A DNA stretch of 64,000 nucleotides, taken from Thermoanaerobaculia bacterium (GTDB lineage: Bacteria > Acidobacteriota > Thermoanaerobaculia > Gp7-AA8). The stretch covers positions 38,937-102,936 of the forward strand of contig DATISF010000028.1 in assembly GCA_035468985.1 (NCBI GenBank), given 5' to 3'. The stretch's first letter is position 1. Every line of letters begins with the position of its first letter. A model generated the notes under the pieces. It searched no databases, was not told the DNA's origin, and saw only the letters and a list, made by a program, of their open reading frames with translations. Both the position numbers and the translations under genes were made by a program. Positions 1,500 to 62,593 of the stretch are shown piece by piece.

Positions 1500-2174
1500 C
1501 TACTCTCCGAGCTTCTGCAGCAGAACTCGCAGCTGCTCGTGAAGTTCCTCGACGCGCGCTTCCAGGCGCGTGACGCGCGCTGACAATGGAGTCCCGGCTT
1601 CAGCCGGGGCCTGCGTTTCGACGACGGCCTCCTCCACCGCCCCACCCGCGGTGTGAACCCAGCGCGATTCCTTCTGTCCCGGCCTCCGCTGCAGCTCGCG
1701 GACGAGGGGCTCGCTGTGCCCAGCCATGTCGCGCAACGTGTCTTCGACTTCCGCAACGGTCTCGAACCGATGCAGCCGGTCGCTTCGCCCGCGCAGTTCA
1801 CCGGGAGTCTGCGGCCCGCGCAGAAACAGCATCGTGATGATCGCCTTTTCCGCCGGCTTGAGATGCCACACCTTGTCGAGGTTGTGGTCGAAGCGCACTG
1901 CTCGCCCGCCCATCACACGCCAGGCGAGCTTCTCGTCCTGCAGGCGATCGAGCGCGCGCTGCACATCCGCTTCAGAAAGCTCCATGACCGGTTCGCGATT
2001 CGATTTCTGATTGCAGGCCGCGACGAGCGCATTGAGCGTCAGCGGATAGTACTCGGGCGTCGAGAGCTGCTTCTCCATCAGGCTGCCGAGGATGCGGATT
2101 TCGGCAGGTTCGAGGGCGCGGGGGATGCGCGGGCGCTGCGGCGAGTCGGTGTCGAGGGTCGGGACGAAGCTCAT
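1500..2174 (-). CDS. yceH: YceH/DUF480-family protein
   Basis: The protein is 224 aa with ...LSTPEYYPLTLNALVAACNQKSNREPVM...FLRGPQTPGELRGRSDRL...LEARVEELHEQ. This is the conserved UPF0502 pattern. The start codon overlaps the upstream gene's stop (ATGA at 2171-2174). Confidence 0.7.
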   Translation of the reverse strand: MSFVPTLDTDSPQRPRIPRALEPAEIRILGSLMEKQLSTPEYYPLTLNALVAACNQKSNREPVMELSEADVQRALDRLQDEKLAWRVMGGRAVRFDHNLDKVWHLKPAEKAIITMLFLRGPQTPGELRGRSDRLHRFETVAEVEDTLRDMAGHSEPLVRELQRRPGQKESRWVHTAGGAVEEAVVETQAPAEAGTPLSARVTRLEARVEELHEQLRVLLQKLGE

Positions 2175-3430
2175 TCGGGGATTGTATCCGTGCGGTGTTC
2201 GGGGTTCGGGGTTCGGGGTTCGCTGGGCCTCTGGCCCTTCGAGCCGCGAATGACGAACACCGGCTCGCGGGCTGTCCTCGGCTGTCCGAAATAGTTGTCC
2301 ACCCTCATCGCCACGCTCCTCGCCAAGGACATGAACGTGGTCAGCTTTCCGCCGAAAACGTTGATCAGGTTGCGGGAGCGGGCCACGCGGGAGTCGCGGG
2401 ATATCGCGCTCGGGTTCGTGGCCCGGCCGACCAGCGGGCGCACGCCGGCGAACGTCGAGGCGATGCCGGCGTGCGAGATCGGCTCGCGAAAGTAGTGATT
2501 GAACCGGGCCAGCAGGTATTCGATCTCCTCATTGGACGGTTCAACGTCGTCGAGCGAATCGCGATGGACGACTTCGGTCGTCCCGACCAGCGTCGTCTCC
2601 TTCCATGGCAGGACAAAAAAGACGCGGCGATCGCTGATCGACTGGAGGAGAAATCCGACATCGCTGACGCGGCGCCTCAGGACGAGGTGGCTTCCACGGA
2701 TCAGCGACAAGACGTATCGCGCACGGATGCGGTTCTGGCGCAGGAGGTCGTTCATCCAGGGGCCGGCTGCGTTCACGACCAGGTCAAACGGCTCCTCCCC
2801 GCGAGCGGAGCGGACGACCCAGCCATCGCCGTTGCGCTGCAGCGAGTCGACACGGGTGTGCTCGAGAACCCTCGCTCCTTCCGATTCCGCGGAGGCGATC
2901 ACCGTCCGCGTGAGCGCGTAATCGTCGGCCTGCGCATCCCAGTACGAAAATCCGCCGCGCAGCCCCTCTGTGATCAGCGGACCGCGCGCGGCGATCTCGC
3001 CGGTCGAGAACGCCCGGTGCCGGTGAATGTTCTTGCGGCCTGCAAGGACGTCGTAGAGCGTCAGGCCGATGCGGATCGTGAACCGCGATCGCGGGCTGTC
3101 CTCGTAGACCGGCAGGAAGATCTCCACCGGCCGGACCAGCTCCGGCAGATGCTCCAGCAGCCAGGCGCGGTCGCGGAGAGACTCGCGTACGACGCCGAAC
3201 TGCAGATGCTCGAGGTAGCGCAGACCGCCGTGGACCATCTTCGTTGAGCGGGACGACGTCTGTGCGCCGCACTCACCCTTCTCGAAGAGCACGACGTCGT
3301 AGTCGCGGCGCGCCAGCTCCCACGCGATGCCGGCGCCATTGATCCCACCGCCCACCACGGCCACACGCTTGCGCCCTGCGGAACGTCGCGCCGCATGATT
3401 CTCGTTCGACGAAATTTTGGCAGATGCCAT
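2171..3430 (-). CDS. FAD-dependent oxidoreductase of the glycerol-3-phosphate dehydrogenase/oxidase (GlpD/GlpO-like) type
   Basis: The N-terminus has the VAVVGGGINGAGIAWELA dinucleotide fold, and a KMVHGGLRYLE motif is present. The start was trimmed to the ATG at 3430 (MASAKISS...), because the upstream part of the long ORF overlaps the divergent patatin gene. The C-terminus carries a (GGGGTTC)3 repeat. Confidence 0.65.
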   Translation of the reverse strand: MASAKISSNENHAARRSAGRKRVAVVGGGINGAGIAWELARRDYDVVLFEKGECGAQTSSRSTKMVHGGLRYLEHLQFGVVRESLRDRAWLLEHLPELVRPVEIFLPVYEDSPRSRFTIRIGLTLYDVLAGRKNIHRHRAFSTGEIAARGPLITEGLRGGFSYWDAQADDYALTRTVIASAESEGARVLEHTRVDSLQRNGDGWVVRSARGEEPFDLVVNAAGPWMNDLLRQNRIRARYVLSLIRGSHLVLRRRVSDVGFLLQSISDRRVFFVLPWKETTLVGTTEVVHRDSLDDVEPSNEEIEYLLARFNHYFREPISHAGIASTFAGVRPLVGRATNPSAISRDSRVARSRNLINVFGGKLTTFMSLARSVAMRVDNYFGQPRTAREPVFVIRGSKGQRPSEPRTPNPEHRTDTIPE

Positions 3431-3433
3431 GCA

Positions 3434-4639
3434 ATGGCTCAGTGCGTGAGCGCGCTGGAGCGCATCGTAACGGCACTGACTCCGAAGGAACAGACCGGCG
3501 ATCTGGCCGTCATGTTGACCGGGGGCGGCGCCCGAGCCGCTTATCAGGTCGGATTGCTCCTTGGCCTCGCCCGCCATTACCCGAACCTGAAATTTCAGAT
3601 CGTCACCGGCGTCTCCGCCGGCGCGATCAACGCCGCGTTTCTCGCGGCACACACGGGATCGCTCGCTCAGAAAGCGCGCGACCTGGAGCAGGTCTGGTGC
3701 GAGCTCGAATGGAGCAGCATCTGGAGCTTCGACTGGAGACGCGCGCTGCCGTTCCATTCGGCGTTCACCTCCATCTTTCCGAAACATCGATGGACGAAGC
3801 CGCAAGGCGCCGTCGACACCGCGCCGCTGGCGCGGCTGCTGTATCGCGTGATGGATGCCAGGCCCGGCCAGCCGATCCGCGGCATCGCCGAAAACCTCGA
3901 GCGCGGAGACCTGCATGCGGTCGCGGTCAATACGCTGGACTATTCGACCGGCCAGAGCGTGCGCTGGGTCCAGGGCCACCACGACGATACGTTCGAGGGC
4001 CCCAACCGGCGTTCCGTCGCCACACACCTCACGGTCGAGCACATTCTGGCCTCCTGCGCGCTGCCGTTCTTCTTTCCGGCCGTGCAGATCGGCTCGCAGT
4101 GGCACGGCGACGGAGGGATCCGTCTCGCCGCGCCGCTCTCTCCCGCCTTACATCTCGGCGCGCGCCGCGTGATCGCCATGTCCACCGGCTACCAGCGCAC
4201 GGATGCCGAAGCGTCGACACCCGTGGTTCGCGGATATCCGCCGGCAGCGCAGATTCTCGGCCAGCTGATGAACGCCATCTTTCTCGACGTCATCGACGAA
4301 GACGTCGTCCGCATGGAGCGGATGAACGACATCATCACGAAGCTCGACGCGCGCGAGCGGGACGGTCTCAAGGCCATCGATCTGCTCGTCCTACGACCTT
4401 CCGAGGATCTCGGGAAGCTGGCCACCGCGTACGAGAAATACCTCCCCCGCTACATGAAGCTATTCACCCGCGCCCTCGGCGCGAAGCAGACCGAGTCGCC
4501 CGATTTCATCTCCCTGCTGATGTTCGAGCCTCGCTACACCCGCGAGCTCATCGACATCGGCAAGGCCGACGTCGACTCCCGGATCGACGAGATCCACGGT
4601 TTCCTCGGAGATGCCGTGCCGCAAATCGCGGCTCTCTGA
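3434..4639 (+). CDS. Patatin-like phospholipase
   Basis: The protein has the GGGARAAYQVG oxyanion motif, the GVSAG (GxSxG) nucleophile motif and a DGG catalytic Asp motif. The start is taken at MAQCVSALE. Confidence 0.75.
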   Translation: MAQCVSALERIVTALTPKEQTGDLAVMLTGGGARAAYQVGLLLGLARHYPNLKFQIVTGVSAGAINAAFLAAHTGSLAQKARDLEQVWCELEWSSIWSFDWRRALPFHSAFTSIFPKHRWTKPQGAVDTAPLARLLYRVMDARPGQPIRGIAENLERGDLHAVAVNTLDYSTGQSVRWVQGHHDDTFEGPNRRSVATHLTVEHILASCALPFFFPAVQIGSQWHGDGGIRLAAPLSPALHLGARRVIAMSTGYQRTDAEASTPVVRGYPPAAQILGQLMNAIFLDVIDEDVVRMERMNDIITKLDARERDGLKAIDLLVLRPSEDLGKLATAYEKYLPRYMKLFTRALGAKQTESPDFISLLMFEPRYTRELIDIGKADVDSRIDEIHGFLGDAVPQIAAL

Positions 4640-4676
4640 CATAATCGCCGGACGAGACTTCAATCTCGGCTCTCTG

Positions 4677-5813
4677 ATGGCCGTTCTCGAGCTGGAGCTG
4701 CTTGGCGATTTCCGCATGCGCGCGGAGTCGGGCGCATTGATCAACATCTCTGCGAAAAAATCGCAGGCGATGCTGGCGTACCTCGGCGTCAAGCCTGCCC
4801 AGCTCGTCTCCCGCGACAAGATGGCCGCCCTCCTCTGGAGCAGTACCGCCACCGAACAGGCCCGGCAGAGCCTCCGTCAGACACTTTCCAGCCTGCGGAA
4901 AGAGCTCGCCCAGATCTCCAAGGACCGGAAGATCCTCGTTGAGGAAGGGGACTTCCTGTCGGTCGACCCCGATCTCGTGCAGGTCGACGTCGCCGAATTC
5001 GAAAAGGGCCTCGGATCCGGAACCGAAGAAGGCCTGGCCCGCGCGGTCTCGCTCTATCGCGGCGATTTTCTCGAGGGCTTCGAGCTCGATGAGGAGCGTT
5101 TCGACCAGTGGGTGATCGCCGAGCGCGACCGGCTGCACCGCGCCGCGCTTCGTGCCCACTCGCAACTGGTCGAGATCCAGACCCGCAACGGCGCGCGGGA
5201 CGACGCCATCGCCACCGCCCAGCAGGCGCTGCGCATCGATCCGCTGCAGGAGAGCATGCATCGCACGCTCATGAAGCTGTACATGGACAGCGGCGATCTC
5301 GTGAACGCCGTCCAGCAGTACGACATCTGCGCGCGCACGCTGAAGCGTGAGCTGCAGATCGAGCCCGATGCCGAGACGCGCAAGCTCTTTCAGCAGGTCG
5401 CGCAGCTGCGCTCGAAACGCGGTGCGGAAGGGGAACCGGCCGGCGACGAGAAGAAGCTGGTGTTGATCGTCGAGGACAACGTCCTGAACCGCGAGCTGGT
5501 CAGCGCCATCCTGACGACCGCCGGCTATCGCATCATGGTCGCGCAGGACGGGGCCGAGGCGCTGATGATGCTGGGCCGCGAGCAGATCGACCTGATGCTG
5601 CTCGACATCGATCTCCCCTACATCGACGGCCACAGCCTGCTGCGAGCCGTGCGCGAAAAAGGCATGCAGGTTCCGACGATCTTCGTTTCCGGACTTCCGG
5701 GCGAGGAGCCGGAGCTGCGTGCATTCGAAGTGGGAGCAGCGGACTTCATCCGTAAGCCGGTGAAGAACAGCGTGTTGCTCGCGCGCGTCGCCAAGGTTCT
5801 CGGCGAGCCGTAG
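4677..5813 (+). CDS. SARP/AfsR-family regulator (OmpR-type winged helix plus BTAD domain) fused to a C-terminal response-regulator receiver domain
   Basis: The N-terminus reads MAVLELELLGDFRMR...AMLAYL, which is the SARP wHTH. BTAD helices run to about residue 250. The C-terminal part has a canonical receiver: VLIVEDN, LLDIDLP, TIFVSG and a conserved K. Confidence 0.7.
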   Translation: MAVLELELLGDFRMRAESGALINISAKKSQAMLAYLGVKPAQLVSRDKMAALLWSSTATEQARQSLRQTLSSLRKELAQISKDRKILVEEGDFLSVDPDLVQVDVAEFEKGLGSGTEEGLARAVSLYRGDFLEGFELDEERFDQWVIAERDRLHRAALRAHSQLVEIQTRNGARDDAIATAQQALRIDPLQESMHRTLMKLYMDSGDLVNAVQQYDICARTLKRELQIEPDAETRKLFQQVAQLRSKRGAEGEPAGDEKKLVLIVEDNVLNRELVSAILTTAGYRIMVAQDGAEALMMLGREQIDLMLLDIDLPYIDGHSLLRAVREKGMQVPTIFVSGLPGEEPELRAFEVGAADFIRKPVKNSVLLARVAKVLGEP

Positions 5814-5909
5814 TCGTGTCGTGCCGCCGTCCCGGCGGCCTTCAGGGCCGGCCGGAGGCCGGCACCACACGAGCTTGCCTCGATCTTGCAAGAGGCCTAG
5901 CTTGCCATC

Positions 5910-6260
5910 ATGAGAGTCCTGGTCGTCGAACAGAATCCGCGCCTCGCCCTGGCCATCGATCAAGACCAGCAGCGGTTCCCGTTCACGTGCGAGCGGGCCA
6001 GCGACGGCTGGGAAGCGATCGAAAAGCTCGAGGCGGGCGACTACGACGCCATCGTGATCGATGGCGATCTCCCGCGCCGCAGCGGATTCGGCGTGCTGAC
6101 GTATCTGCGCGAGGAAGTCGGCGACGCGCTCGACCGCGTGATCGTCATGACCAGCGCGGATGAAGACACTCTGCGCGGCAGGCTGCGCGAGTCCCACCTG
6201 AAGGTCGTCAGCAAGGACAAGGCGGCCGAGGCGCTGACCGTGGTGCTGGCCTCAGAGTGA
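5910..6260 (+). CDS. Single-domain response-regulator receiver protein with an atypical acidic pocket (EQ in place of DD)
   Basis: MRVLVVEQN...AIVIDGDLPRRSGF...VIVMTSADE...K fits a CheY-like fold. The phosphoacceptor Asp is present, but the first acidic pair is replaced by E-Q. Confidence 0.6.
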   Translation: MRVLVVEQNPRLALAIDQDQQRFPFTCERASDGWEAIEKLEAGDYDAIVIDGDLPRRSGFGVLTYLREEVGDALDRVIVMTSADEDTLRGRLRESHLKVVSKDKAAEALTVVLASE

Positions 6261-7628
6261 GCGCAGGATCGCTGCCGCGCTCCGCTCCACATCCTCCTCC
6301 GTCGTGGCCCAGTTCGAGACCGAGATTCGCATCGCCGCCATCTTATGCCAGACGGTTCCCGCCAGCCAGCACGTTCCGTCCTGCTGGACGCGGGTGATGA
6401 CGTCGCGCGTGCGCTGATCGTCGTCGCCGAAGCGGACGAGCACCTGATTCAGCGTGACGTCGTTGAGAATCCTCACCCGGTCGTCCCGTTGGAGGATCTC
6501 TGCGAACTGCCGCGCGCGATCGCAGAGCCGGTCGATGAGGTCCTCGACGCCGAGCCGGCCGAGCGTGCGCAGCGCTGCGTAGACGGAAATTCCTCGAGCG
6601 CGGCGCGAGAATTCCGGCGTCCAGTCGACGCTGTCGCGCTCCCTGCCGGTGGTCTGTTCGAGGTAGGCGGCGCTCGCGGTCATCGATGCCCGATGCGCAA
6701 CAGAATCGCGAACGATCGCCACTCCGCAGTCGTACGGCACGTTCAGCCATTTGTGCGCGTCGGTGGCCCAGGAATCGGCGAGCTCGACTCCATCGATCAA
6801 CTCGCGTTTGCGGCGGCTGGCCGAGGCCCACAGGCCGAAGGCTCCGTCGATGTGGAGCCAGGCGCCGCGCTCGCGGGTCTCCGTGGCGATCTCGCGCAGC
6901 GGATCGAATGCGCCGCTGTTCACGTTGCCGGCCTGCGCACAGACGATGGTCGGGCCGGAGAGCTTGCGCAGCGCGTCGCGCAGACCGTCCGCGCGCATGC
7001 GTCCCTGCTCGTCGGTCGGGACGTGAACGGCGTGCGTTCCGAGACCGAGGTACCGCAGCGCGACAAAGATCGTGACGTGCGACTCATCGCTGACGACGAT
7101 GTTCACTTTCGGCGCGCCCTGCAGCCCATCCTCTTCCACGTTCCAGCCGGCGTTGCCCAAAACGGCGTGCCTGGCCGCGGCCAGGCAGGTGAAGTTCGAC
7201 ATCTGGCCGCCCGTGGTGTAGCCGACACTGGCCTCGCGCGGAAGACGAAACAGATCGAGGAGCCATTCCCGCGCAACATCCTCGGCCACGGCCGCGATCG
7301 GCGAGGCCGCGTAGAGGCCGGCGTTCTGATCCCACGCGGCGACCATCCACTCGGCGCCGACGGTCACCGGGAGTGACCCGCCGATGACGAATCCGAAAAA
7401 TCGCGGTGACGGAGTCGCCATCGTCCCACGCTCGGCTGCCACCGCCAGAGCATCGAGCACCGCGGTCGCATCTTCGCCGTCATCAGAGAGGGGCACGCTG
7501 AGTGAGCGATTCAGCTCCTCCAGCGTGGCGCGAGGGCCTACGGGGCGGTCGGGAACCGCGCGGAGGAAGGTACTGGCATGTTGAAAGGCACGGCGGAGGA
7601 TTGCTTCATCAAAAATCGCTAACGGCAT
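6252..7628 (-). CDS. Group II pyridoxal-phosphate-dependent amino-acid decarboxylase, resembling diaminobutyrate or tyrosine decarboxylases
   Basis: The protein is 458 aa and contains ATDAHKWLNVPYDCG, the PLP-binding Lys region. The overall pattern matches the aspartate aminotransferase-fold decarboxylases. Confidence 0.75.
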   Translation of the reverse strand: MPLAIFDEAILRRAFQHASTFLRAVPDRPVGPRATLEELNRSLSVPLSDDGEDATAVLDALAVAAERGTMATPSPRFFGFVIGGSLPVTVGAEWMVAAWDQNAGLYAASPIAAVAEDVAREWLLDLFRLPREASVGYTTGGQMSNFTCLAAARHAVLGNAGWNVEEDGLQGAPKVNIVVSDESHVTIFVALRYLGLGTHAVHVPTDEQGRMRADGLRDALRKLSGPTIVCAQAGNVNSGAFDPLREIATETRERGAWLHIDGAFGLWASASRRKRELIDGVELADSWATDAHKWLNVPYDCGVAIVRDSVAHRASMTASAAYLEQTTGRERDSVDWTPEFSRRARGISVYAALRTLGRLGVEDLIDRLCDRARQFAEILQRDDRVRILNDVTLNQVLVRFGDDDQRTRDVITRVQQDGTCWLAGTVWHKMAAMRISVSNWATTEEDVERSAAAILRSL

Positions 7629-7639
7629 GCGTCGATAAT

Positions 7640-8095
7640 ATGACGATGCAGTACGAAGTCTCGACCGACAAGTCCCAGCTTGACATCGATCTGATTCACG
7701 AATTTCTCAGCAACGATTCCTACTGGGCGAAAAACGTCCCGCGGGAGCTCGTCGAGCGCTCGATCGCCAATTCGCTCTGCTTCGGAGCCTACCAGGGGCG
7801 GCAGCAGGTCGGTTTCGCACGGGTGATCTCCGATCTCGCCGTCTTCGCTTACGTCGCAGACGTGTTCGTGATCCCGGCGCACCGCGGCCGCGGCGTGTCG
7901 AAGTTGATCATGCAGGCGATCCGCGAGCATCCCGACCTCCAGGTTCTGCGGCGATGGCATCTCCTGACCCGCGATGCCCATGATCTGTACCGCCAGTACG
8001 GCTTCCGGGACCTCGAGAATCCTGCGCGGCACATGGAAATTGCGGTGAAAGACCCGTACGGTGCGGCCGGAATGGGGAGCCGGAAAAACTGTTGA
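7640..8095 (+). CDS. GNAT-family N-acetyltransferase
   Basis: The 151-aa protein has GFARVISD...[23 protein letters not shown], the acetyl-CoA-binding motif A (R/Q-x-x-G-x-G/A). The start is the ATG at 7640, only 11 bp from the divergent decarboxylase start. Confidence 0.65.
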
Positions 8096-18874: not shown

Positions 18875-19984
18875 TCACTTCCGAATCGCTTCAGCGATGC
18901 GGACGACCTCCGACTCCATCTCCACGCCGAACTCGCTCCGAATCTCGTAGATCCAGCCGTAGAGGAGCTCGTTGAGGATGTTGTGCACGACCGCGCCACG
19001 GTCGGCCGAGCCGGACGCGATGAGATTGTTCAGCAGCTGATCGAAATCGATGCGGCCCTCATTGACGAAATTCATCCCGCTCAGGTAGGGCAGCGTCTCC
19101 GGCGAGAGCTGCAGGACCACACGGTCCATGAAGTCGTAGACGTGGTCACCGACCTTCTGAAGAACGAGGGCGAAGATCTGCTGGAACGCGGTGTTGTAGC
19201 GCTCGACGATCCCTTCGAGCTCGTACTCGGTCGCCTCGGCCTCACGCTTCTCGACGAGGTCCGCGCCGGCCGCGTCCTGCACGAGGTTGATCACCAGGAG
19301 TCCCCACAGCGTGCGGCAGGTCGAAAAGTTCGTCAGGTAGCTTCGCTTGCAGACACTTTCGACGGTTTGGGCGCTCTCGCCGAACAGCGAGAGAACGTGC
19401 CCTTCCTCGTCGTTGAGCTCCAGCTGGTAGGCGCGCGTATCGGCGCCGGGCACCTGTTCGAGAAGGCGGTCCAGTCTTCCGATGCCGCGCATGATCAGCG
19501 ACCAGAAGTCGATCGACTCCACTCCGTCCAGAACGAGACGCTCGGTCGAAAGCGGAAGGGTGATGATCTCGTCGGGAAAGTTCGACGTGAACTCGATCGT
19601 GTAACTGCCGGTCCGGTACCGCATGGCGTTGACCACGATCGCGCTCGACTGCCTCTCCACCGCGCGGCTCAGCTCCTCCGGCTTGAGGTAGCCGAGCTCG
19701 ACGAGCAGTGCGCCGATCCGCCGCGAGACGACCAGCCGGTCCATCACGTTGTTGTATTGCTGCAGATTCAGCTCGCCCGTGCGAAGCAGCGTTTCGGCGA
19801 GTCCGACGTCCTGATCGGTGGATGACGCGAAGATGATCCGCCCTTCGTTGAAGTAGATCGTGTCGTTGCGGCCGATGGCGTCGAGCGAAAGGATCGCCGT
19901 CTCGCCGGAACGGAGGATGGAACGGAAAAGGTCGGGGACAGTCGTCTCCGCCAGCGTGCCTTGAATCGAGAGTTCTTCGGACAT
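18875..19984 (-). CDS. DUF4388-domain protein
   Basis: The N-terminus, LAETTVPDLFRSILRSGETAILSLDAIGRNDTIYFNEGRIIFASS...GLAETLLRTGELNLQQ, matches the DUF4388 pattern. The start is taken at MSEELSIQ, directly downstream of the heptamer array. Confidence 0.6.
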   Translation of the reverse strand: MSEELSIQGTLAETTVPDLFRSILRSGETAILSLDAIGRNDTIYFNEGRIIFASSTDQDVGLAETLLRTGELNLQQYNNVMDRLVVSRRIGALLVELGYLKPEELSRAVERQSSAIVVNAMRYRTGSYTIEFTSNFPDEIITLPLSTERLVLDGVESIDFWSLIMRGIGRLDRLLEQVPGADTRAYQLELNDEEGHVLSLFGESAQTVESVCKRSYLTNFSTCRTLWGLLVINLVQDAAGADLVEKREAEATEYELEGIVERYNTAFQQIFALVLQKVGDHVYDFMDRVVLQLSPETLPYLSGMNFVNEGRIDFDQLLNNLIASGSADRGAVVHNILNELLYGWIYEIRSEFGVEMESEVVRIAEAIRK

Positions 19985-19986
19985 TT

Positions 19987-20045
19987 GGGATTCGGGATTC
20001 GGGATTCGGGGTTCGGGATTCGGGATTCGGGATTCGAGATTCGAG
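19987..20045. repeat. Tandem heptanucleotide array (GGGATTC) of about 8 units, with one GGGGTTC and one GAGATTC variant, filling the whole GGDEF-DUF4388 intergenic space
   Basis: The direct read is gggattc gggattc gggattc ggggttc gggattc gggattc gggattc gagattc. Confidence 0.85.
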
Positions 20046-21356
20046 CTACGTGGTGGCCGGCTTCGTCGCGTCTTCCACCGTGGCAACGCCCACCGAGTTC
20101 TTCGTCGTCGACTTCACCTTGTACATCGCGGTGTCGGCCTGGCGGATCAGGCCTTCCTTGGTGATGGCATGGGTCGGATACGTGGCGATGCCGAAGCTGG
20201 CGGTGATGGAGATCTCGACATTCGCGTCGACATTGAAGACCGTCGCCGTCATCGCCTTGCGCACGCGGTTGGCCACGGCCATGGCCTGATCGGAATCGGT
20301 CTGCGGCAGGATGATGCAGAACTCGTCGCCGCCGAACCGCACGACCTTGTCGATGGCGCGCACGGCGCCGAGGATCCGTTTGGCCACTTCCTGAAGCGTG
20401 CGCGATCCGGTGAGATGGCCGTAAAAGTTGTTGACCATCTTCAGGTCGTCGAGGTCGAGGAAGATGATGCTGAAGAGCGTCCCGTACCTGCGGGACCGCT
20501 CGATCTCCTCGTCGAGGTAGGACTCGAAGAAGCGACGGTTGAACGCTTTGGTCAGGTCGTCGCGCATGGCCAGGTCGCGGCTGCGCGTCAACTGGTAGAT
20601 GTTGCTCAACACCTGGCCGACCGCGGCCAGATACCGGCTCACGTTGAATGCGCCTTCGTCGGTGAACGCGTCCTTCGCCTGGAGCGGCACCTTGATGACG
20701 CCGATCAGGTCCTCGTTGACCTGCAGCGGCATGACGATCATGCCGGTCCCGTTTTTCTCCCGTTCTGAGGCGAGGAGATTTCCCGACGACAGAGCGCGCT
20801 GCAACAGTCCCGGCGGAACGCCGGGAAGAAACTCGCTGGTCTCGTGATAGCTCGAGTCGTTGCTGAAACTGACGACGTAGCGCTCCAGCCGGGGGTCGTG
20901 AAGGAAGAGCGTACCCGTCTCGAGTCCGAGGAGGTCGAGGACCGTGTGCGTGATCTTCTCCGACACTTCGTCGGCTTCGACCATCGACATCATTTCGTGG
21001 ATCTGCCCGAGGTAGGTGACTTCCTGCTCCAGTTGAGAGGCGTGAGCGGCGGTCTCGGCCAGGTCATCCGCGAAGTCGAGGTACTCACCAGGGTTGTTCA
21101 GAAAGGCATCGCGATTCACGCGGATCTCGCCGCGACGCCGTTGCGGCGGCACGTCGTTTTCGCAGAGGACGATCCGCACGAGACTCTTGCGCGGCGGGGA
21201 GTCGAGAACCTTGTGCGAGTCGGCGTCGATGACGACGATCCGCGACGGGTCGTCCCCTTCGCCTGCCGCGACGAAGTTGGATGACCGGCACGCCTCGCGA
21301 AGGCGTCGGACGAGGTCGCCCCGACCCGAATAGACACCGACAGATTGCTGGTTCAT
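20046..21356 (-). CDS. GAF-domain diguanylate cyclase (GGDEF)
   Basis: The central part has a GAF-like fold. The C-terminal GGDEF domain carries the RFGGDEF A-site, and an I-site-like RxxD lies upstream. Confidence 0.8.
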   Translation of the reverse strand: MNQQSVGVYSGRGDLVRRLREACRSSNFVAAGEGDDPSRIVVIDADSHKVLDSPPRKSLVRIVLCENDVPPQRRRGEIRVNRDAFLNNPGEYLDFADDLAETAAHASQLEQEVTYLGQIHEMMSMVEADEVSEKITHTVLDLLGLETGTLFLHDPRLERYVVSFSNDSSYHETSEFLPGVPPGLLQRALSSGNLLASEREKNGTGMIVMPLQVNEDLIGVIKVPLQAKDAFTDEGAFNVSRYLAAVGQVLSNIYQLTRSRDLAMRDDLTKAFNRRFFESYLDEEIERSRRYGTLFSIIFLDLDDLKMVNNFYGHLTGSRTLQEVAKRILGAVRAIDKVVRFGGDEFCIILPQTDSDQAMAVANRVRKAMTATVFNVDANVEISITASFGIATYPTHAITKEGLIRQADTAMYKVKSTTKNSVGVATVEDATKPATT

Positions 21357-21397
21357 TCGCGCGAAACGCTTAATTCTACAATGGGTTCGGCCGACAG

Positions 21398-22195
21398 ATG
21401 CGCATCGTCCAGATCGTTCTTCCCGCCGTCACCGCGTTCGAGGAGAAGTGCCGCCGCGTCGATCACTCGACTCTCTCCACGAGACACGAAGTCCTCGTCG
21501 CCGGACCGAAGGAACCTCTGCCCGCCGCGGATGTCGCCCACGTGTACGGCCCCGGCGAACTTCCGGCTGCTGCCTTCATCGGGTTTCGACTCCCTTATGT
21601 CGCATCCTCTGAGCCAGTTGGGCGGGCCTGGGTTCGAAAGCCGGCGCGGCCTGCCTACGTGCTGTCGCCGTTGGAGAGTCCGGAGCCGGTGGAGGAGGTC
21701 TTCTTCCAACTCGAGTCCCGAATCCCGAGCCCCGAGTCCCACGTGCTCGGATCGTTTGCGAGGTCGTCGATCGCCAACCTCATCGAGCAGACGCTGGGCC
21801 GCATTCGCCGTTTCCGCGACGATGTCGAGTGGCGGCTTTTCGAGCGCGCGCCGACGCCCGAGGATCTAGCCGGCGTAGACGCGTGGGTCGATCCTGCCAC
21901 CGCCGAGGATGATCTCGACGGCTTCGTCGCCGAGGCGCTCGTGTCGGGCAAACCCGTTGTGGCATCGAGAATTACGATCAATTTGCAGCGCCTCGAAAAA
22001 GGGCGCACCGGCTTCCTCGTTCCGCCGGGAGATCCCAACGAGCTCACTCATGCGATACTAACTGCCCTATTCAAGCCAGAGGTGGCGCGAACGAAAATTG
22101 AGGCAGCACGACAGACCGCCGGCAAGTTCCGGCCCAGGCAACGCCTTCGTCTGCTCGAGCGTATCTACGAGACCGTGATGAAGCCGTCATCCTGA
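21398..22195 (+). CDS. Truncated or degenerate family-1 (GT4-like) glycosyltransferase with an internal heptamer repeat
   Basis: The C-terminal half, FVAEALVSGKPVVASRI...GRTGFLVPPGDPNELTHAIL, is a GT4 C-terminal domain. The protein has only 265 aa against about 370 expected. A (GAGTCCC/GAATCCC) repeat lies at 21706-21733 in the middle. The 3' end runs into a REP-like hairpin. Confidence 0.4.
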   Translation: MRIVQIVLPAVTAFEEKCRRVDHSTLSTRHEVLVAGPKEPLPAADVAHVYGPGELPAAAFIGFRLPYVASSEPVGRAWVRKPARPAYVLSPLESPEPVEEVFFQLESRIPSPESHVLGSFARSSIANLIEQTLGRIRRFRDDVEWRLFERAPTPEDLAGVDAWVDPATAEDDLDGFVAEALVSGKPVVASRITINLQRLEKGRTGFLVPPGDPNELTHAILTALFKPEVARTKIEAARQTAGKFRPRQRLRLLERIYETVMKPSS

Positions 22196-26946: not shown

Positions 26947-28092
26947 CTAGAACTCGATGATGCCGTCCTTCCAGAGCTTGTAGAAGATCATCAGCGCATC
27001 GGCCTCTCGGATCGGGCTGATCTTGATCAGCGATCCAATGTCCCACGTTCCGTTGATGCGCGAGAGGATGAAGCCCTCGTTCGGAGTGAAGTTCATGGTC
27101 GTGATCTCTTCGAGCGACTTCGTGACGCGGGGGACTTCGTTGTCGTGAATCCCCTGATTCCGCAGTTCGGCCATGATGACCGCCTCGGCGCCCTTGACCG
27201 CGCTGCGGACTTTCGGGTGATTGGAGTCGAGATTCTGCGCCGCCTTCAGCAGCCGCTGGGTCTTGTCGAAGTCCTTGGCGCGTAGTGCGGTCTGGGCGGC
27301 GCTGAGGAGCGAGTTGATCTCGTCGGACTCGTTGAAGCCCGCTTCCACCGCCGGGAACGGCTCCGGCTCGGCAGGCGCCCCGCCCGCCACCGCCGCTTCC
27401 AGCAGCTGAATGAACCCGGCCCGCACGAGCGGGCGCAACGTCGAACAGACGATGAATGACGACGAACGGCTTTCCAGCACGATCTCGGCGATGGTCCGCT
27501 TGCCGTCGATCGAGTCGATCACCTGTGTCTGTGCCTCGCCGAATTCTTCATCGACCTCGATCGGCTTCTGCACCACCGGCACGACCGCGTCGTTCGGAAT
27601 CACCTCGCGGATCCGCGGCCATTCGTCCGATCGCCGCGTCCCCTCCATGATGATCCCGGTGACGTCGATGCGCAGCGGCACCATTTCCATCTGTGGCAAC
27701 TCGTCGTCGAGGAATTGGAAAGTCCCCTCTTTCCACAGGAAGACGTCGAAGATCTCCTCCTCCGCCTTGAGGCGCATGAGCCGCGTCAGGTCCTTCTCGG
27801 TGATGAGGCCAATGATGACCAGAATCTTGCCGAGAAGGATGCTCGACTGCTGCTGGACCTCCATCGCCTTGCGCAGCTCTTCCTCGTTCAGATAGCCGTG
27901 GCTCATCAGGAACTGGCCGAGGTATTCGCGGGGATCGTTGGATGCGGAGGAGATGACGCGGCCGGACTCGAAGAAGATCTTCTTTTCGACGTCCTTGCTG
28001 GTGACGACGAGAGTGCCGGTCTTCTGCGCCAGGCTCAACCACTGAAGCAGGTCGCCCGGCAGCATCGACTTCAGGTTACCGCTGACTCCCAT
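26947..28092 (-). CDS. DUF4388-domain protein, second paralog
   Basis: The N-terminus, LPGDLLQWLSLAQKTGTLVVTSKDVEKKIFFESGRVISSASND...LGQFLMSHGYLNEEEL, matches the DUF4388 pattern. Confidence 0.6.
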   Translation of the reverse strand: MGVSGNLKSMLPGDLLQWLSLAQKTGTLVVTSKDVEKKIFFESGRVISSASNDPREYLGQFLMSHGYLNEEELRKAMEVQQQSSILLGKILVIIGLITEKDLTRLMRLKAEEEIFDVFLWKEGTFQFLDDELPQMEMVPLRIDVTGIIMEGTRRSDEWPRIREVIPNDAVVPVVQKPIEVDEEFGEAQTQVIDSIDGKRTIAEIVLESRSSSFIVCSTLRPLVRAGFIQLLEAAVAGGAPAEPEPFPAVEAGFNESDEINSLLSAAQTALRAKDFDKTQRLLKAAQNLDSNHPKVRSAVKGAEAVIMAELRNQGIHDNEVPRVTKSLEEITTMNFTPNEGFILSRINGTWDIGSLIKISPIREADALMIFYKLWKDGIIEF

Positions 28093-28150
28093 CTCGTAAA
28101 GGGTTGTGAATTATAACGTTTGGACGTTTACTAGCGGGCCTGGGTCCCGG

Positions 28151-44963: not shown

Positions 44964-45782
44964 TCAGAGCGTCACCAGCTCCAGGTTCTCGATCTCGTGC
45001 TCGAGGAACTCTCCGGCAATGCGGCGGAAACGCTCCTCGGCATCGGTGACCAGAAACGTGTGGAGCGAGGGGCGTCCTCGCGCGCCGGCGGCCGATGACG
45101 GCCGCCGCTGCACGGCTTTCTTCACCCACTTCGCCGTGGTCTCCGCGCTGTCGACGATCTGGACCTTGTCGCCGACCACGCTCTCGATCGTGGCGCGCAG
45201 GATCGGATAGTGCGTGCATCCCAGGACGAGCGTGTCGATCCCGGCGTCGACGAGCGGCTCGAGGTAGATCTCCGCGACCTCGCGCGCGACGTGCGTGTTC
45301 GCCCACCCTTCTTCGGCAAGCGCCACGAACAACGGCGCGGCCGACTCGATGACCTCGATTTGCGCGTCGAGCGCATGAATCGCCTTCGTGTACGCCTTCG
45401 ACTTCACCGTGCCTTCCGTGGCGATCACCCCGATCTTTCCGGACGTGCACTCGATCGCCGCTCTGGCACCCGGTTCGACGACGCCGATCACGGGAATGGG
45501 AAGTTCCGCGGTGAGCGTCGGCAGCGCCGCCGCCGTTGCCGTGTTGCAGGCGATCACGAGCAGCTTGATGCCGCGATCGAGAAGATGCCTGGCGGCCTGA
45601 CGCGAGTAGCGGATCACGATCTCCGGCGACTTCGTCCCGTACGGCACGCGCGCCGAGTCGCCGAGGTACACGAGCGCTTCGCCGGGAAGAGCGCGCGCGA
45701 TTTCGCGAAACACCGTGAGCCCGCCCACACCGGAATCGAAGATGCCGATGGGACGGGATCCGTTACTGCGCTTCGCTCCCAT
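44964..45782 (-). CDS. murI: Glutamate racemase
   Basis: The N-terminus reads IGIFDSGVGGLTV, and the two catalytic Cys contexts are ACNTA and GCTHYP. Confidence 0.85.
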   Translation of the reverse strand: MGAKRSNGSRPIGIFDSGVGGLTVFREIARALPGEALVYLGDSARVPYGTKSPEIVIRYSRQAARHLLDRGIKLLVIACNTATAAALPTLTAELPIPVIGVVEPGARAAIECTSGKIGVIATEGTVKSKAYTKAIHALDAQIEVIESAAPLFVALAEEGWANTHVAREVAEIYLEPLVDAGIDTLVLGCTHYPILRATIESVVGDKVQIVDSAETTAKWVKKAVQRRPSSAAGARGRPSLHTFLVTDAEERFRRIAGEFLEHEIENLELVTL

Positions 45783-47157
45783 CCGGCACCACCCCCGCAC
45801 CTGTTTCGCGTTTGATGTTGTACTGCTCGATCTTCTTGTAGAGATTCGATCGCGGCGTGTCGATCGCTTCGGCGGTGCGGGAGACGTTCCAGCCGTACTC
45901 GCGCAGTTTGGCGAGGATGAAGGCCTTCTCCGCCTCGTCCTTGAAATCCTGCAGCGTCGACATCTTCATGGCGCTGGAAATGATGTCGCTCGGGGCGCGG
46001 AAGAACTCAGCGGGCAGATCGCCGATGTCGATCGCGTCGCCCGGCACCATGATCACCAGCCGCTCGATCATGTTCCGCACCTCGCGGACGTTGCCGCGCC
46101 ACGCCGCGTCCTGCAGCGCCTTGAGCGCCGCGGGCGCGAACGTTTTCGGGTGGTAGTTGTGCTCCTCGGAAAAAAGGCGCGCGAAGTGCTGCGCCAGAAC
46201 CGGGATGTCGTCGCGCCGTTCGCGGAGCGGCGGCGTGCGGATCGGAATCACGTTGAGACGATAGTAGAGATCCTCGCGGAAGCGCCCTGTCTTGATCTCC
46301 TCGGTCAGGTCCTTGTTCGTCGCCGCGATCACGCGCACGTCGACTTTGATGACGCTGGCCGCGCCGACCGGCTCGACTTCACCCTCCTGCAGAACGCGGA
46401 GAACTTTCGCCTGCGTGCGCAGCGACATGTCGCCGACTTCGTCGAGAAAAATCGTCCCGCCGTCGGCGGCGACGAATTTCCCGGTCTGTTTTCGGACCGC
46501 GCCGGTGAATGAGCCCTTTTCGTGCCCGAAGAGCTCCGACTCGATCAGCTCCTCCGGAATTGCCGCGCAGTTGACCTGGATGAACGGCGCGGACGCTCGT
46601 GAGGAGCGGCGATGGATCTCGCGTGCGACGAGCTCCTTGCCGGTCCCCGATTCGCCGGTGATCAGGACCGTGGCTTTCGTGGGAGCGGCGCGATCGACCA
46701 GAGACTTGAGCTCGCGCATCGACGCCGAGTCGCCGACGAGCTGATACTCCTTCTCCGCTTTCGAGCGCAGCTCGGTGTTCTCTTCCTCCACCTGGCGCAG
46801 GCGCACCGCGTTGCGCACGGTCAGCAGAAGCTTGTCGCGGTTCAGCGGCTTCTCGAGAAAATCGAACGCGCCGCGTTTCGTGCACTCGACCGCCGTGTGC
46901 ACGTCGCCATGTCCCGAAACCATCACCACGGGCGACGACACCCGCTGCTGCTTGAGATTCTCGAGGACTTCGATGCCGTCGAGGACCGGCATCTTGATGT
47001 CGAGCAGGATCACGTCGTAATCGGTGCGGGTCGCTTTGTCGATGGCCTCCTGTCCCGAGCGCGCCTCGTCGATCCGGTAACCCTCGTATTCGAGCGTCAT
47101 CCGGATCGCCTCGCGGATCCCGGTCTCGTCGTCGACGACTAAAACGCGATAAGCCAT
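45763..47157 (-). CDS. Sigma-54-dependent two-component response regulator (NtrC family)
   Basis: It has a receiver (VLVVDDE...LLDIKMP), an AAA+ sigma-54 activator domain with GESGTGKE and GAFTGA, and a C-terminal Fis-type HTH. Confidence 0.85.
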   Translation of the reverse strand: MAYRVLVVDDETGIREAIRMTLEYEGYRIDEARSGQEAIDKATRTDYDVILLDIKMPVLDGIEVLENLKQQRVSSPVVMVSGHGDVHTAVECTKRGAFDFLEKPLNRDKLLLTVRNAVRLRQVEEENTELRSKAEKEYQLVGDSASMRELKSLVDRAAPTKATVLITGESGTGKELVAREIHRRSSRASAPFIQVNCAAIPEELIESELFGHEKGSFTGAVRKQTGKFVAADGGTIFLDEVGDMSLRTQAKVLRVLQEGEVEPVGAASVIKVDVRVIAATNKDLTEEIKTGRFREDLYYRLNVIPIRTPPLRERRDDIPVLAQHFARLFSEEHNYHPKTFAPAALKALQDAAWRGNVREVRNMIERLVIMVPGDAIDIGDLPAEFFRAPSDIISSAMKMSTLQDFKDEAEKAFILAKLREYGWNVSRTAEAIDTPRSNLYKKIEQYNIKRETGAGVVPDGSEAQ

Positions 47158-47217
47158 GCCGTACTGCCGTGCATGTTATAGGCCTTACGCCCCGCCCCTG
47201 TACAATCCCCCGCCGCC

Positions 47218-51412: not shown

Positions 51413-51907
51413 CTACTTTTTCCGCCGCCCCTCGCCCGAAGCGTTGTTCTTCGCGGCGTGGCGCGCCTGGCCGAGCGTCACATTCACCGGGTTGGCGCGG
51501 TCGAGGAACGGGACCGCCGGTCTGGCGCGGATCCCGAGCTCCTTACGCATTTCGAGCAGCTCGTCGTGTTCCGGCGCGACTTTCAGGCCCGAGTCGGCAA
51601 CCTCCACGGCTTTCTTCCGGTCCCCACGCGCCAGGTAGATGCGGGCAAGGTTCACGTAGTGATCGCCGTTGTAGAACTCCAGATCGAGTGCGCGTTTGCA
51701 GAGATCGATGCCTTCCTTGTACTTCTTCTGCACGAGGGCGAGGCACAGTCCGAAGTACGACAGCCCGACGGCGTCTTTCCCGGTCTTCACCGGAGCAGCG
51801 CCGTCGGTTCCGTAGATTTCCAGGAAACGCGTCAGGGCCTGCAGGTAATCGTGCTGCTGGGTCAGTTCGATTGCTACGTCAATCTGTCGGGTTGGTTTTG
51901 CCATCAA
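51413..51907 (-). CDS. TPR-repeat protein
   Basis: Three to four TPR-like helix pairs are present: LALVQKKYKEGIDLCKRALDL..., and YVNLARIYLARGDRKKAVEVADSGLKV. Confidence 0.6.
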   Translation of the reverse strand: MMAKPTRQIDVAIELTQQHDYLQALTRFLEIYGTDGAAPVKTGKDAVGLSYFGLCLALVQKKYKEGIDLCKRALDLEFYNGDHYVNLARIYLARGDRKKAVEVADSGLKVAPEHDELLEMRKELGIRARPAVPFLDRANPVNVTLGQARHAAKNNASGEGRRKK

Positions 51908-52617
51908 ATCAGTTCTCGTGAGCGGAGGCGGTAAACGAAGTGCTCGATGCGCTGCCGCTCCTGGGGATTGAGATTCACGAACCGCAGTCCGTACTTGGCC
52001 ATCGTACCGGAGAACTCCGCGCGCAGGATCTCGGCGTCGATTTTCATCGGCTCCGGGTCGCCCGGCAGATAGAAATGGAGACAGACGTTCTCTTCTCCGG
52101 GAAGAACACGATCGACTTCAATCAACATGCCGTTCGCGGAGATGTTCATGCTCCGTGCAAGGACGAAACGGCCGTTCTTCTCGAGGGAGACCTCGATCTT
52201 GGTGATCGTTCTCAGCTGCCGTCGGACGGGAATCGACGTCAGCCGTTCGACTTTCTCGTCGAGATCGCGCCGCTGCAGCGGACGGTAGATGACATCGTTG
52301 CAGCCGGCAGAGATGCAGAGATCGCGGTGTTCCTGCGCGTCGCGATCGCAGACCAGGAGAAGTGAGATCGCCTTGGTGTTGTCATCGCCGCGGATCTCGC
52401 GGCAGAACTCCGGTGCGGTCATGTCGAACAGATCGAAGGCCAGGATGATCAGGTTCGGAGTCTCTTCCTTCGCCTTCTCCAGCGCCTCGGAGCCGGCCAG
52501 GGCGGTGCTGATGGCCACGCCACGCCGGCGGAGAATCGTTTCCTGAAAGGCGAGCGATCCGCGCGACTGGTCGACGAGCAGAATGCGGCCGAGCTGCGCC
52601 TTGGCCTTGGTCGTCAC
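51904..52617 (-). CDS. Response-regulator receiver fused to a PilZ domain
   Basis: The receiver is ILLVD...LIILAFDL. The C-terminal part has the PilZ motifs RRQLR and DLSANG-like NISANG. Confidence 0.6.
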   Translation of the reverse strand: MTTKAKAQLGRILLVDQSRGSLAFQETILRRRGVAISTALAGSEALEKAKEETPNLIILAFDLFDMTAPEFCREIRGDDNTKAISLLLVCDRDAQEHRDLCISAGCNDVIYRPLQRRDLDEKVERLTSIPVRRQLRTITKIEVSLEKNGRFVLARSMNISANGMLIEVDRVLPGEENVCLHFYLPGDPEPMKIDAEILRAEFSGTMAKYGLRFVNLNPQERQRIEHFVYRLRSRELI

Positions 52618-62550: not shown

Positions 62551-62593
62551 GATGCACTCATTCTAGCGCCCGATGCAGTGATAAAAGGAGCGA

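Follow-up and report, generated by a model that had tools for sequence, protein, structure and literature searches.

Can a transcription activator of the SARP type serve as the output of two-component signaling, and which genes would it then control? The question is raised by a 378-aa protein encoded at positions 4677..5813 (plus strand) of a 64,000-nt stretch of DNA, here referred to as the window, from a metagenome-assembled genome of a Thermoanaerobaculia bacterium (Acidobacteriota; assembly GCA_035468985.1, contig DATISF010000028.1, positions 38,937 to 102,936 of the forward strand; ~64% G+C). The protein, which we call SARP-REC, joins a winged helix-turn-helix (wHTH) domain and a BTAD domain to a C-terminal receiver (REC). 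An initial annotation of the window had pointed out this domain order and had proposed that the gene, an upstream patatin-like phospholipase, a second receiver, and a decarboxylase–acetyltransferase pair form a signal-controlled module of lipid or amine metabolism. Our results moderately favor a different reading, in which SARP-REC would be an orphan two-component response regulator, expressed from its own promoter, whose Asp310 is phosphorylated by a distant kinase or histidine phosphotransfer (Hpt) protein and whose SARP output acts on unlinked targets.

Domain architecture and receiver residues

Pfam searches place three domains in SARP-REC in the order Trans_reg_C (aa 27–86), BTAD (aa 110–241), and Response_reg (aa 262–371). 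The BTAD match (PF03704) has an E-value of 2.8e-24 and scores 86.6 bits compared to a cut-off of 22.1, and the receiver (PF00072) is matched with an E-value of 5.5e-26. On the plus strand the OmpR-type wHTH corresponds approximately to aa 1–103 (nt 4677–4985), the BTAD to nt 5004–5399, and the receiver to nt 5460–5789, with a low-confidence, disordered linker at aa 252–256 in the AlphaFold2 model. The model, built from 30 family members, has a pLDDT of 94.4 and a pTM of 0.68, and the latter value together with the linker indicates two rigid bodies whose relative orientation is uncertain. In a Foldseek comparison with the PDB, the N-terminal body resembles the SARP module of AfsR in its RNA polymerase complexes (8k60, 8hvr) as well as EmbR (2fez/2ff4), and the C-terminal body resembles receivers of the OmpR/PhoB family with TM-scores of at least 0.9. 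The sequence alignment with EmbR spans aa 4–243 (E = 1.7e-5) and is the best full-length match among solved structures.

A SARP is recognized by a wHTH followed directly by a BTAD. Both are present here, the wHTH being identified by its fold, by the EmbR alignment, and by domain records for many orthologs and paralogs. Similarly, the receiver possesses the acidic pair, aspartate, Ser/Thr, and lysine that mark a response regulator. Residues E266-D267, D310 (the predicted phospho-acceptor, nt 5604–5606, plus strand), S338, and K360-P361 align with D12, D13, D57, T87, and K109 of CheY. Across 30 family members with 33–59% identity, D310, K360, and P361 never vary and E266 and D267 hardly do, and in a 10-sequence family alignment the position equivalent to T87 always holds Ser or Thr. 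In OmpR/PhoB regulators the receiver comes first and the wHTH second; because the order in SARP-REC is wHTH-BTAD-REC, the protein should not be filed in that group. The wHTH-BTAD-REC arrangement is thus real and statistically secure, and it lies exactly where the initial annotation had placed it, with Pfam and NCBIfam domain searches, AlphaFold2, and Foldseek all agreeing on an order reversed relative to OmpR-type regulators.

Distribution of the family

Orthologs of 375–386 aa with 62–87% identity were found in 80 species-level genomes; the identity of paralogs ranges from 35 to 56%. The scan used one genome per species and a 10-sequence alignment as the query; all 80 retained loci are orthologs, and nearly all of them carry a Thermoanaerobaculia or Acidobacteriota label. 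The length and the domain pair of SARP-REC recur in more than 120 database proteins with at least 71% identity, and the fusion is therefore not an assembly artefact. Independent assemblies from NCBI, ENA, and Logan all contain the identical sequence, which NCBI annotates as 'MAG TPA: response regulator [Thermoanaerobaculia bacterium]'. The spread of orthologs over so many species at this level of identity, together with the large number of close homologs, indicates that the protein is under clear purifying selection.

A HMMER search against representatives of 50%-identity clusters returned, among the top 150 matches, at least 31 further full-length clusters (352–423 aa, 33–59% identity), while the other strong matches shared the common SARP module only and carried different C-terminal regions. 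A profile made from the distant members retrieved wHTH-BTAD-REC proteins exclusively (342–406 aa), which, where named, came from Thermoanaerobaculia, plus one from Vicinamibacterales. Pairwise identity to the SARP-REC of the window is 59–76% in the ortholog group and 35–46% in the paralog groups. Judged by these sequences, wHTH-BTAD-REC is an established family, so far restricted to Acidobacteriota, and not a one-off fusion. Automated annotation already recognizes the domains, as in the JGI label 'DNA-binding SARP family transcriptional activator/CheY-like...' given to one family member. One ortholog with 72% identity (locus L038, JALZHV010000406.1) is located in a bin labelled Actinomycetota; its contig is so short (2.1 kb) that a binning error is the probable explanation.

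Kinases, phosphodonors, and the proposed mechanism

The relationship of the family to histidine kinases was surveyed in seven loci with paralogs; L093, looked up as an eighth, turned out to hold a deep-branch ortholog with 67% identity. Four of the seven paralogs adjoin a kinase, and three of these four are associated with Hpt domains. In L094 and L089 the SARP-REC gene is followed on the same strand, after 3 and 242 bp respectively, by a hybrid kinase of the HisKA-HATPase_c-REC-Hpt type; in L092 overlapping genes form an operon of SARP-REC, a kinase, and a REC-Hpt protein; and in the Vicinamibacterales locus, L090, the adjacent kinase gene is convergent. The family thus appears repeatedly coupled to His-Asp(-His-Asp) machinery. 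This coupling and the intact catalytic residues argue that the receiver is a real phospho-acceptor, and SARP-REC is most likely a genuine response regulator that is orphaned in the window.

The initial annotation had remarked that the window encodes no histidine kinase, and our searches concur: no HisKA, HATPase_c, or Hpt domain was detected by Pfam in the open reading frames (ORFs) scanned, which included every likely coding ORF of at least 330 aa, and tblastn with five kinases from paralogous loci detected no kinase core. The Hpt part of a paralog-linked REC-Hpt protein gave one weak tblastn match at 63272–63508 on the plus strand (E = 0.002, 36% identity over 84 aa), which lacks Pfam support, the ORF in question (62585–63829) having no Pfam hit.

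SARP-REC has a promoter of its own at 4637..4645 (plus strand), formed by TGA at 4637–4639, which is at the same time the stop codon of the patatin gene, and the −10 element CATAAT at 4640–4645, 31 nt before the ATG. The pattern NATAAT occurs within 60 nt of the SARP-REC start codon in 79 of 82 orthologous upstream regions, whatever the upstream gene, against a background of 0.004 per 60 nt. TGn precedes it in 47 of those regions, and the usual distance to the ATG is 8–15 nt. Since no −35 element is conserved, the promoter is probably constitutive.

In the mechanism that we propose, a histidine kinase or Hpt protein encoded elsewhere would phosphorylate Asp310, and the phosphorylated OmpR/PhoB-type receiver would then dimerize or free the SARP module. 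Two wHTH domains could bind tandem direct repeats overlapping the −35 region of sigma-70-type promoters, with the BTAD contacting RNA polymerase as it does in AfsR complexes. The gene itself would be transcribed from its own −10-type promoter, and its targets are probably not the neighboring genes. The small receiver encoded downstream may once have used the same phosphodonor.

Several observations weigh against this mechanism. A kinase or Hpt gene is absent from the 64-kb window and from the surrounding 10 kb in all 80 orthologous loci examined, and the ETF-adjacent paralog group, which accounts for three of the seven sampled loci, has no nearby kinase either. We found no convincing direct-repeat site of the SARP type; the only repeat with 11-bp spacing is located at 5874–5889, in the promoter of the small receiver. 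The Trans_reg_C match, at 24.2 bits, falls slightly below the Pfam cut-off of 26.2. Because the orientation of the receiver relative to the SARP module is uncertain at the pTM given above, the choice between release and dimerization is guesswork. Finally, the literature that we searched contained no experimental study of any wHTH-BTAD-REC member.

The absence of kinases near any ortholog examined and the seemingly constitutive promoter would also be expected if the C-terminal domain were a phosphorylation-independent pseudo-receiver used for dimerization or protein binding. However, pseudo-receivers usually lose their catalytic residues, whereas the set E/D-D, D, S/T, and K-P is invariant or nearly invariant across paralogs with 33–59% identity, and paralogs are found in operons with kinases and Hpt proteins. 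We consider the pseudo-receiver explanation improbable and retain the orphan response regulator as the preferred interpretation.

Comparison with known regulators

To our knowledge, SARP activators are known almost only from antibiotic clusters of actinomycetes. Where the known SARPs receive a signal at all, Ser/Thr kinases (AfsR, EmbR) or ligands provide it. The closest analogue of SARP-REC, and one of its top Foldseek matches, is EmbR of Mycobacterium tuberculosis, which likewise consists of a wHTH and a BTAD followed by a C-terminal phospho-signaling domain in a protein of ~380 aa. The difference lies in that last domain. EmbR ends in an FHA domain, which reads phospho-threonine from Ser/Thr kinases, whereas SARP-REC ends in a receiver for which phosphorylation on Asp by His-Asp phosphotransfer is predicted. 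Pfam found no FHA domain in SARP-REC; its C-terminal domain is Response_reg.

The SARP module also shares its fold with AfsR and with the small SARPs of Streptomyces (ActII-ORF4, DnrI, RedD), with target-normalized TM-scores of 0.68–0.71. By homology, SARP-REC would be expected to act as these proteins do, through direct repeats that overlap the −35 region and through recruitment of RNA polymerase (PMC10972967). AfsR is phosphorylated on Ser/Thr by AfsK (PMC10972967), and SARPs are therefore not intrinsically independent of phosphorylation. The premise of the initial annotation that they normally are does not hold, given AfsR and the FHA domain of EmbR. In other respects the proteins differ: AfsR carries NB-ARC and TPR domains and the small SARPs have no sensory domain, while SARP-REC has a receiver; and the Streptomyces proteins are actinobacterial and mostly encoded in biosynthetic clusters, while SARP-REC is acidobacterial and encoded among housekeeping genes. 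A 2024 review of the SARP classes lists the DNA-binding domain and BTAD alone or in combination with NB-ARC, TPR, AAA, or LuxR domains, and includes no receiver class.

With the OmpR/PhoB family SARP-REC shares the type of receiver and the type of winged helix, the best NCBIfam and PDB matches of its receiver being CseB, TorR, PhoB, OmpR, YycF, ArcA, and PmrA. The order is the opposite, though, and a BTAD of ~140 aa separates the wHTH from the receiver in SARP-REC, so the regulatory interdomain contacts of OmpR/PhoB proteins cannot recur. A precedent for phosphorylation that masks or releases an upstream output domain is PhyR, which has an N-terminal output and a C-terminal receiver. The PhyR output is sigma-factor-like and works by partner switching rather than DNA binding, and outside the receiver there is no sequence relationship to SARP-REC. 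A non-actinomycete regulator of the SARP family, GSU1771 of Geobacter sulfurreducens, has been described with mention of a receiver domain (PMC10599522). We considered it as a possible characterized SARP-REC and rejected it, because the purified His-tagged protein of ~28.5 kDa fits a wHTH and a BTAD only and leaves no room for a receiver.

SARP-REC is thus a conserved, uncharacterized variant of both the response-regulator and the SARP families, so far known only in Acidobacteriota, and the literature searched for SARP or BTAD proteins with a receiver contains no description of its architecture. On balance we lean, if only slightly, toward a broader proposal: the wHTH-BTAD-REC proteins may be an undescribed, reversed-order family of Acidobacteriota that act as terminal acceptors of His-Asp-His-Asp phosphorelays, in which case SARP-type activators would for the first time be linked directly to two-component signaling. 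The gene in the window would represent an orphan branch that nearly all Thermoanaerobaculia have kept and that receives its phosphoryl group from a kinase or Hpt protein encoded far away.

The SARP output module would then have been recruited into His-Asp signaling too, and in another phylum. SARP-REC is no surprise in kind, but the known repertoire of response regulators gains from it both an output class and a reversed order of domains. As a compact system, it also lends itself to the question of how DNA binding is controlled by a receiver that follows the output domain. Among the Thermoanaerobaculia, which are abundant uncultured bacteria of soils and sediments, it marks a nearly universal regulator.

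Gene order and promoters around SARP-REC

The gene order was established from the ORF map and from public gene calls for the same sequence. Upstream of SARP-REC and on the same strand lies the patatin-like phospholipase (3446..4639; PF01734, E = 2.2e-25), as the initial annotation had stated. It is preceded by a divergent GlpD-like FAD oxidoreductase (2171..~3367, minus strand; Pfam DAO, E = 1.1e-60), which scores 323 bits against the NCBIfam glycerol-3-phosphate dehydrogenase model, below the cut-off of 360, the C-terminal part of the model being missing, and by a DUF480 gene (1500–2174, minus strand). Downstream follow a small single-domain receiver of 116 aa (5910..6260, plus strand; Pfam Response_reg, E = 9.5e-11) and a group II pyridoxal-phosphate (PLP)-dependent decarboxylase (6252..7628, minus strand; Pfam Pyridoxal_deC, E = 1.8e-46), which is convergent with the small receiver and overlaps it by 9 bp. 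The score of the decarboxylase against the NCBIfam diaminobutyrate decarboxylase model is 154 bits compared to a cut-off of 900. Pfam and the ORF map also bear out that a GNAT acetyltransferase (7640..8095, plus strand) is divergent from the decarboxylase with an 11-bp gap. It is followed on the plus strand by ispG and lspA, with which it probably forms one operon, as the GNAT stop codon overlaps the ispG ORF.

The patatin gene, a neighbor outside the SARP-REC unit, has a predicted sigma-54-type −24/−12 promoter, TGGCAGATGCCATGCA, at 3418..3433 (plus strand). The strict form TGGCA-N7-YGCA, with GG-N10-GC spacing, lies upstream of patatin in 41 of 51 loci, and these 41 account for most of the 51 matches in 2.24 Mb of locus sequence; most other patatin loci show a TGGCA...TTGAA variant. 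Gene callers placed the start of patatin at ATG 3434. The true start is likely the in-frame GTG at 3446, because it aligns with the ATG or GTG codons that follow the sigma-54 element within ~15 nt in the orthologs. Sigma-54 promoters need an AAA+ enhancer-binding protein, SARPs have no AAA+ domain, and by homology to AfsR they use a sigma-70-type holoenzyme. Direct activation of patatin by SARP-REC is therefore very unlikely. Elsewhere in the window, an orphan sigma-54 activator of the NtrC type with REC, AAA+, and HTH_8 domains (45766–47175, minus strand) is a formal candidate activator of this promoter, with no evidence for a link.

Between SARP-REC and the small receiver, a GC-rich hairpin (5811..5872, plus strand) extends from the SARP-REC stop codon toward the promoter of the small receiver. 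Its predicted RNA fold has −41.1 kcal/mol (z = −5.45; none of 200 shuffled sequences was as stable), and it has no U-tract; it is probably a transcription barrier or terminator. The promoter that follows (5873..5903, plus strand) consists of a −35 element within GCTTGCC (5873–5879), an 18-nt spacer, and the −10 element TAGCTT (5898–5903), which is separated from the ATG by 6 nt in a leaderless-like arrangement. The pattern GCTTGY-N17-20-TANNNT is found in 38 of 52 upstream regions of small receivers compared to only 43 matches in the entire 2.24 Mb of loci, and the conserved form reads ACGGCnGCGCTTGCCT, 17–18 nt, TAnAnTG, and then 5–8 nt to the ATG. With a promoter of its own, the small receiver forms a transcription unit separate from SARP-REC.

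This promoter includes a perfect direct repeat with an 11-bp period, CTTGC-N6-CTTGC (5874–5889, plus strand), whose downstream copy is placed 7–8 bp from the −10 element. We considered it as a SARP site and rejected it: the promoter spacer shows no conservation among 45 orthologs, and the window shows no enrichment of the motif. The repeat is common only to the sub-lineage of L013, L048, L049, L060, and L078, with near-matches in L008–L010, and as a SARP box it is a weak lead only.

Most relatives have a MocR-type gene (GntR and aminotransferase domains) divergent from the decarboxylase, whose upstream region contains conserved TGTCATA direct repeats, ATTGTCATA-N8-TGTCATACTTGACG, in addition to a promoter. 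These repeats were seen in the 140 nt upstream of the decarboxylase in L003, L016, L019, L023, L025–L027, L032, L035, L054, L063, and others. The lineage of the window has lost the MocR gene, and its decarboxylase is preceded by a TATTAT box (7635–7640, minus strand) that lies within the 5' end of the GNAT gene and is separated from the decarboxylase ATG by 6 nt.

In the orthologs, only 5–15 nt separate the −10 boxes of the SARP-REC, small-receiver, and decarboxylase genes from the start codon, a distance suggestive of mRNAs with no leader or a very short one in this lineage; the SARP-REC leader in the window is longer, with 31 nt between the −10 element and the ATG. Many intergenic regions of relatives also contain inverted arrays of short tandem repeats with units of 6–10 nt, such as (GTAGTCCTTA)n ... 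(TAAGGACTAC)n, for which long perfect hairpins are predicted. Such arrays are located upstream of the small receiver in L014 and L001, between the GlpD-like gene and patatin in L016, L018, L024, L042, L043, and L063, and upstream of SARP-REC in L019, L027, L034, and L043. The unit sequence varies by locus while the architecture is the same, and none was seen at the corresponding positions of the window.

Do SARP-REC and its neighbors form a module?

We located the eleven neighboring proteins of the window in the 80 species loci by tblastn. Patatin is found within 4 kb upstream of SARP-REC in 41 of the 64 loci that extend at least 3 kb upstream, and is directly adjacent in 28. Among the 49 loci with at least 3 kb downstream, 31 have the small receiver downstream of SARP-REC (adjacent in 19), and 44 have the decarboxylase within 8 kb. 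The decarboxylase is the most persistent neighbor and is also present in the deep branch and L093. The deepest ortholog branch (62–67% identity) has neither patatin nor the small receiver; there, a divergent MgtE gene and genes for a glyoxalase, KDO8P synthase, and CTP synthase lie upstream of SARP-REC. In at least 10 loci, genes on the opposite strand are inserted between SARP-REC and the small receiver. As candidate kinases these were rejected, since they encode a metallophosphoesterase of ~430 aa or an Ig/BACON-domain protein of ~1,065 aa, secreted. In ~10 loci an insertion of ~1.5 kb separates patatin from SARP-REC.

These frequencies, and the recurrence of the order GlpD-like gene, patatin, SARP-REC, receiver, decarboxylase, and GNAT in many Thermoanaerobaculia, are what one would expect if SARP-REC and the small receiver controlled patatin and/or the decarboxylase–GNAT pair as one lipid or amine unit. 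The block, however, also keeps the housekeeping genes DUF480, ispG, and lspA, so that common descent could account for the synteny. The genes each have a promoter of their own, that of patatin calling for an AAA+ activator that a SARP is not, and the decarboxylase of most relatives is paired with a divergent gene for a dedicated MocR regulator and carries TGTCATA repeats. The insertions on both sides of SARP-REC and the deepest branch, in which patatin and the small receiver are missing, speak against a unit as well. We found no common transcription unit or control region kept across relatives, such as a co-regulated operon or module would have, and the separate conserved promoters together with the MocR regulator leave a shared lipid or amine module unsupported. 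We regard this part of the initial annotation as quite unlikely. The expectation that patatin, SARP-REC, and the second receiver stay together in relatives is borne out in only ~60% of species, but within a housekeeping block and with opposite-strand interruptions. The operon picture of the locus changes accordingly: patatin is predicted to be sigma-54 dependent, and the decarboxylase is MocR-linked in relatives.

A narrower possibility is that SARP-REC controls only the convergent decarboxylase, and hence amine metabolism. The persistence of this neighbor, up to the deep branch and L093, would favor such a link. On the other hand, ispG and lspA stay nearby too, as inherited synteny would predict, and the promoter of the decarboxylase lies on the far side of the gene and is of the MocR type in most species and a plain TATTAT box in the lineage of the window, where no tandem repeats lie outside the coding sequence. 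Because the two genes are convergent, they share no common control region. We give this possibility little credence, and unlinked targets of an orphan response regulator remain the explanation that we prefer.

The small receiver

The pocket of the small receiver consists, by alignment with CheY, of E7-Q8, D51, T81, and K102, where position 8 is a degenerate Mg-binding position. At position 8, 34 of 53 orthologs have D, 10 have N, 3 have E, and 6 have some other residue, and Gln occurs in the window only. In all, 16 of the 53 have a non-acidic residue at position 8, and 16 have another residue, mostly Arg, in place of the conserved Lys, while D51 and T81 are kept in at least 50. Because position 8 is D or N in most orthologs, the ancestral protein was probably phosphorylatable. 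These alignments indicate a receiver that is ordinary by descent and in which the constraint on the pocket is relaxed in parts of the clade, including this genome. With Gln at the Mg-binding position, the protein in this genome is probably a poor phospho-acceptor. The initial annotation had read the E-Q pocket as that of a non-standard phospho-acceptor, which stands for this genome and does not extend to the family, where E-D is found in 34 of 53 orthologs.

It is conceivable, although unlikely, that the small receiver belongs to the SARP-REC pathway, either as a phosphate sink or competitor for a common kinase or Hpt protein, or, where its pocket is degenerate, as a modulator that acts by receiver–receiver binding. 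The frequent proximity of the two genes, the conservation of D51 and T81, and the second receiver fused to Hpt or kinase in the paralogous operons are consistent with this idea. The small receiver nevertheless has a promoter of its own, and the hairpin or inserted genes stand between it and SARP-REC; where insertions occur, it stays beside the decarboxylase, not beside SARP-REC. Many loci lack it, among them L016, L018, L032, L035, and those of the entire deep branch. No specific resemblance was found between it and the receivers of the phosphorelays in paralogous loci (best E = 0.013), and the replacements at position 8 and at the Lys also count against the idea.

Other genes in the window

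Three receivers are encoded in the window besides SARP-REC, namely the small receiver, the NtrC-type regulator, and a REC-PilZ protein (51907–52659, minus strand). Other genes on the minus strand encode a GGDEF protein (20049–21428), a Ser/Thr kinase (60526–62562), and two DUF4388 proteins (18878–20113 and 26950–28110). We considered patatin as an anti-phage effector of CBASS or similar systems and rejected this assignment: the CBASS_lipase model gives 33.7 bits compared to a cut-off of 200, PADLOC gives weak, fold-level matches only, and the gene lies in a housekeeping context. Most loci with patatin have the GlpD-like gene divergent from it, and the two may represent a small glycerolipid-catabolic pair.

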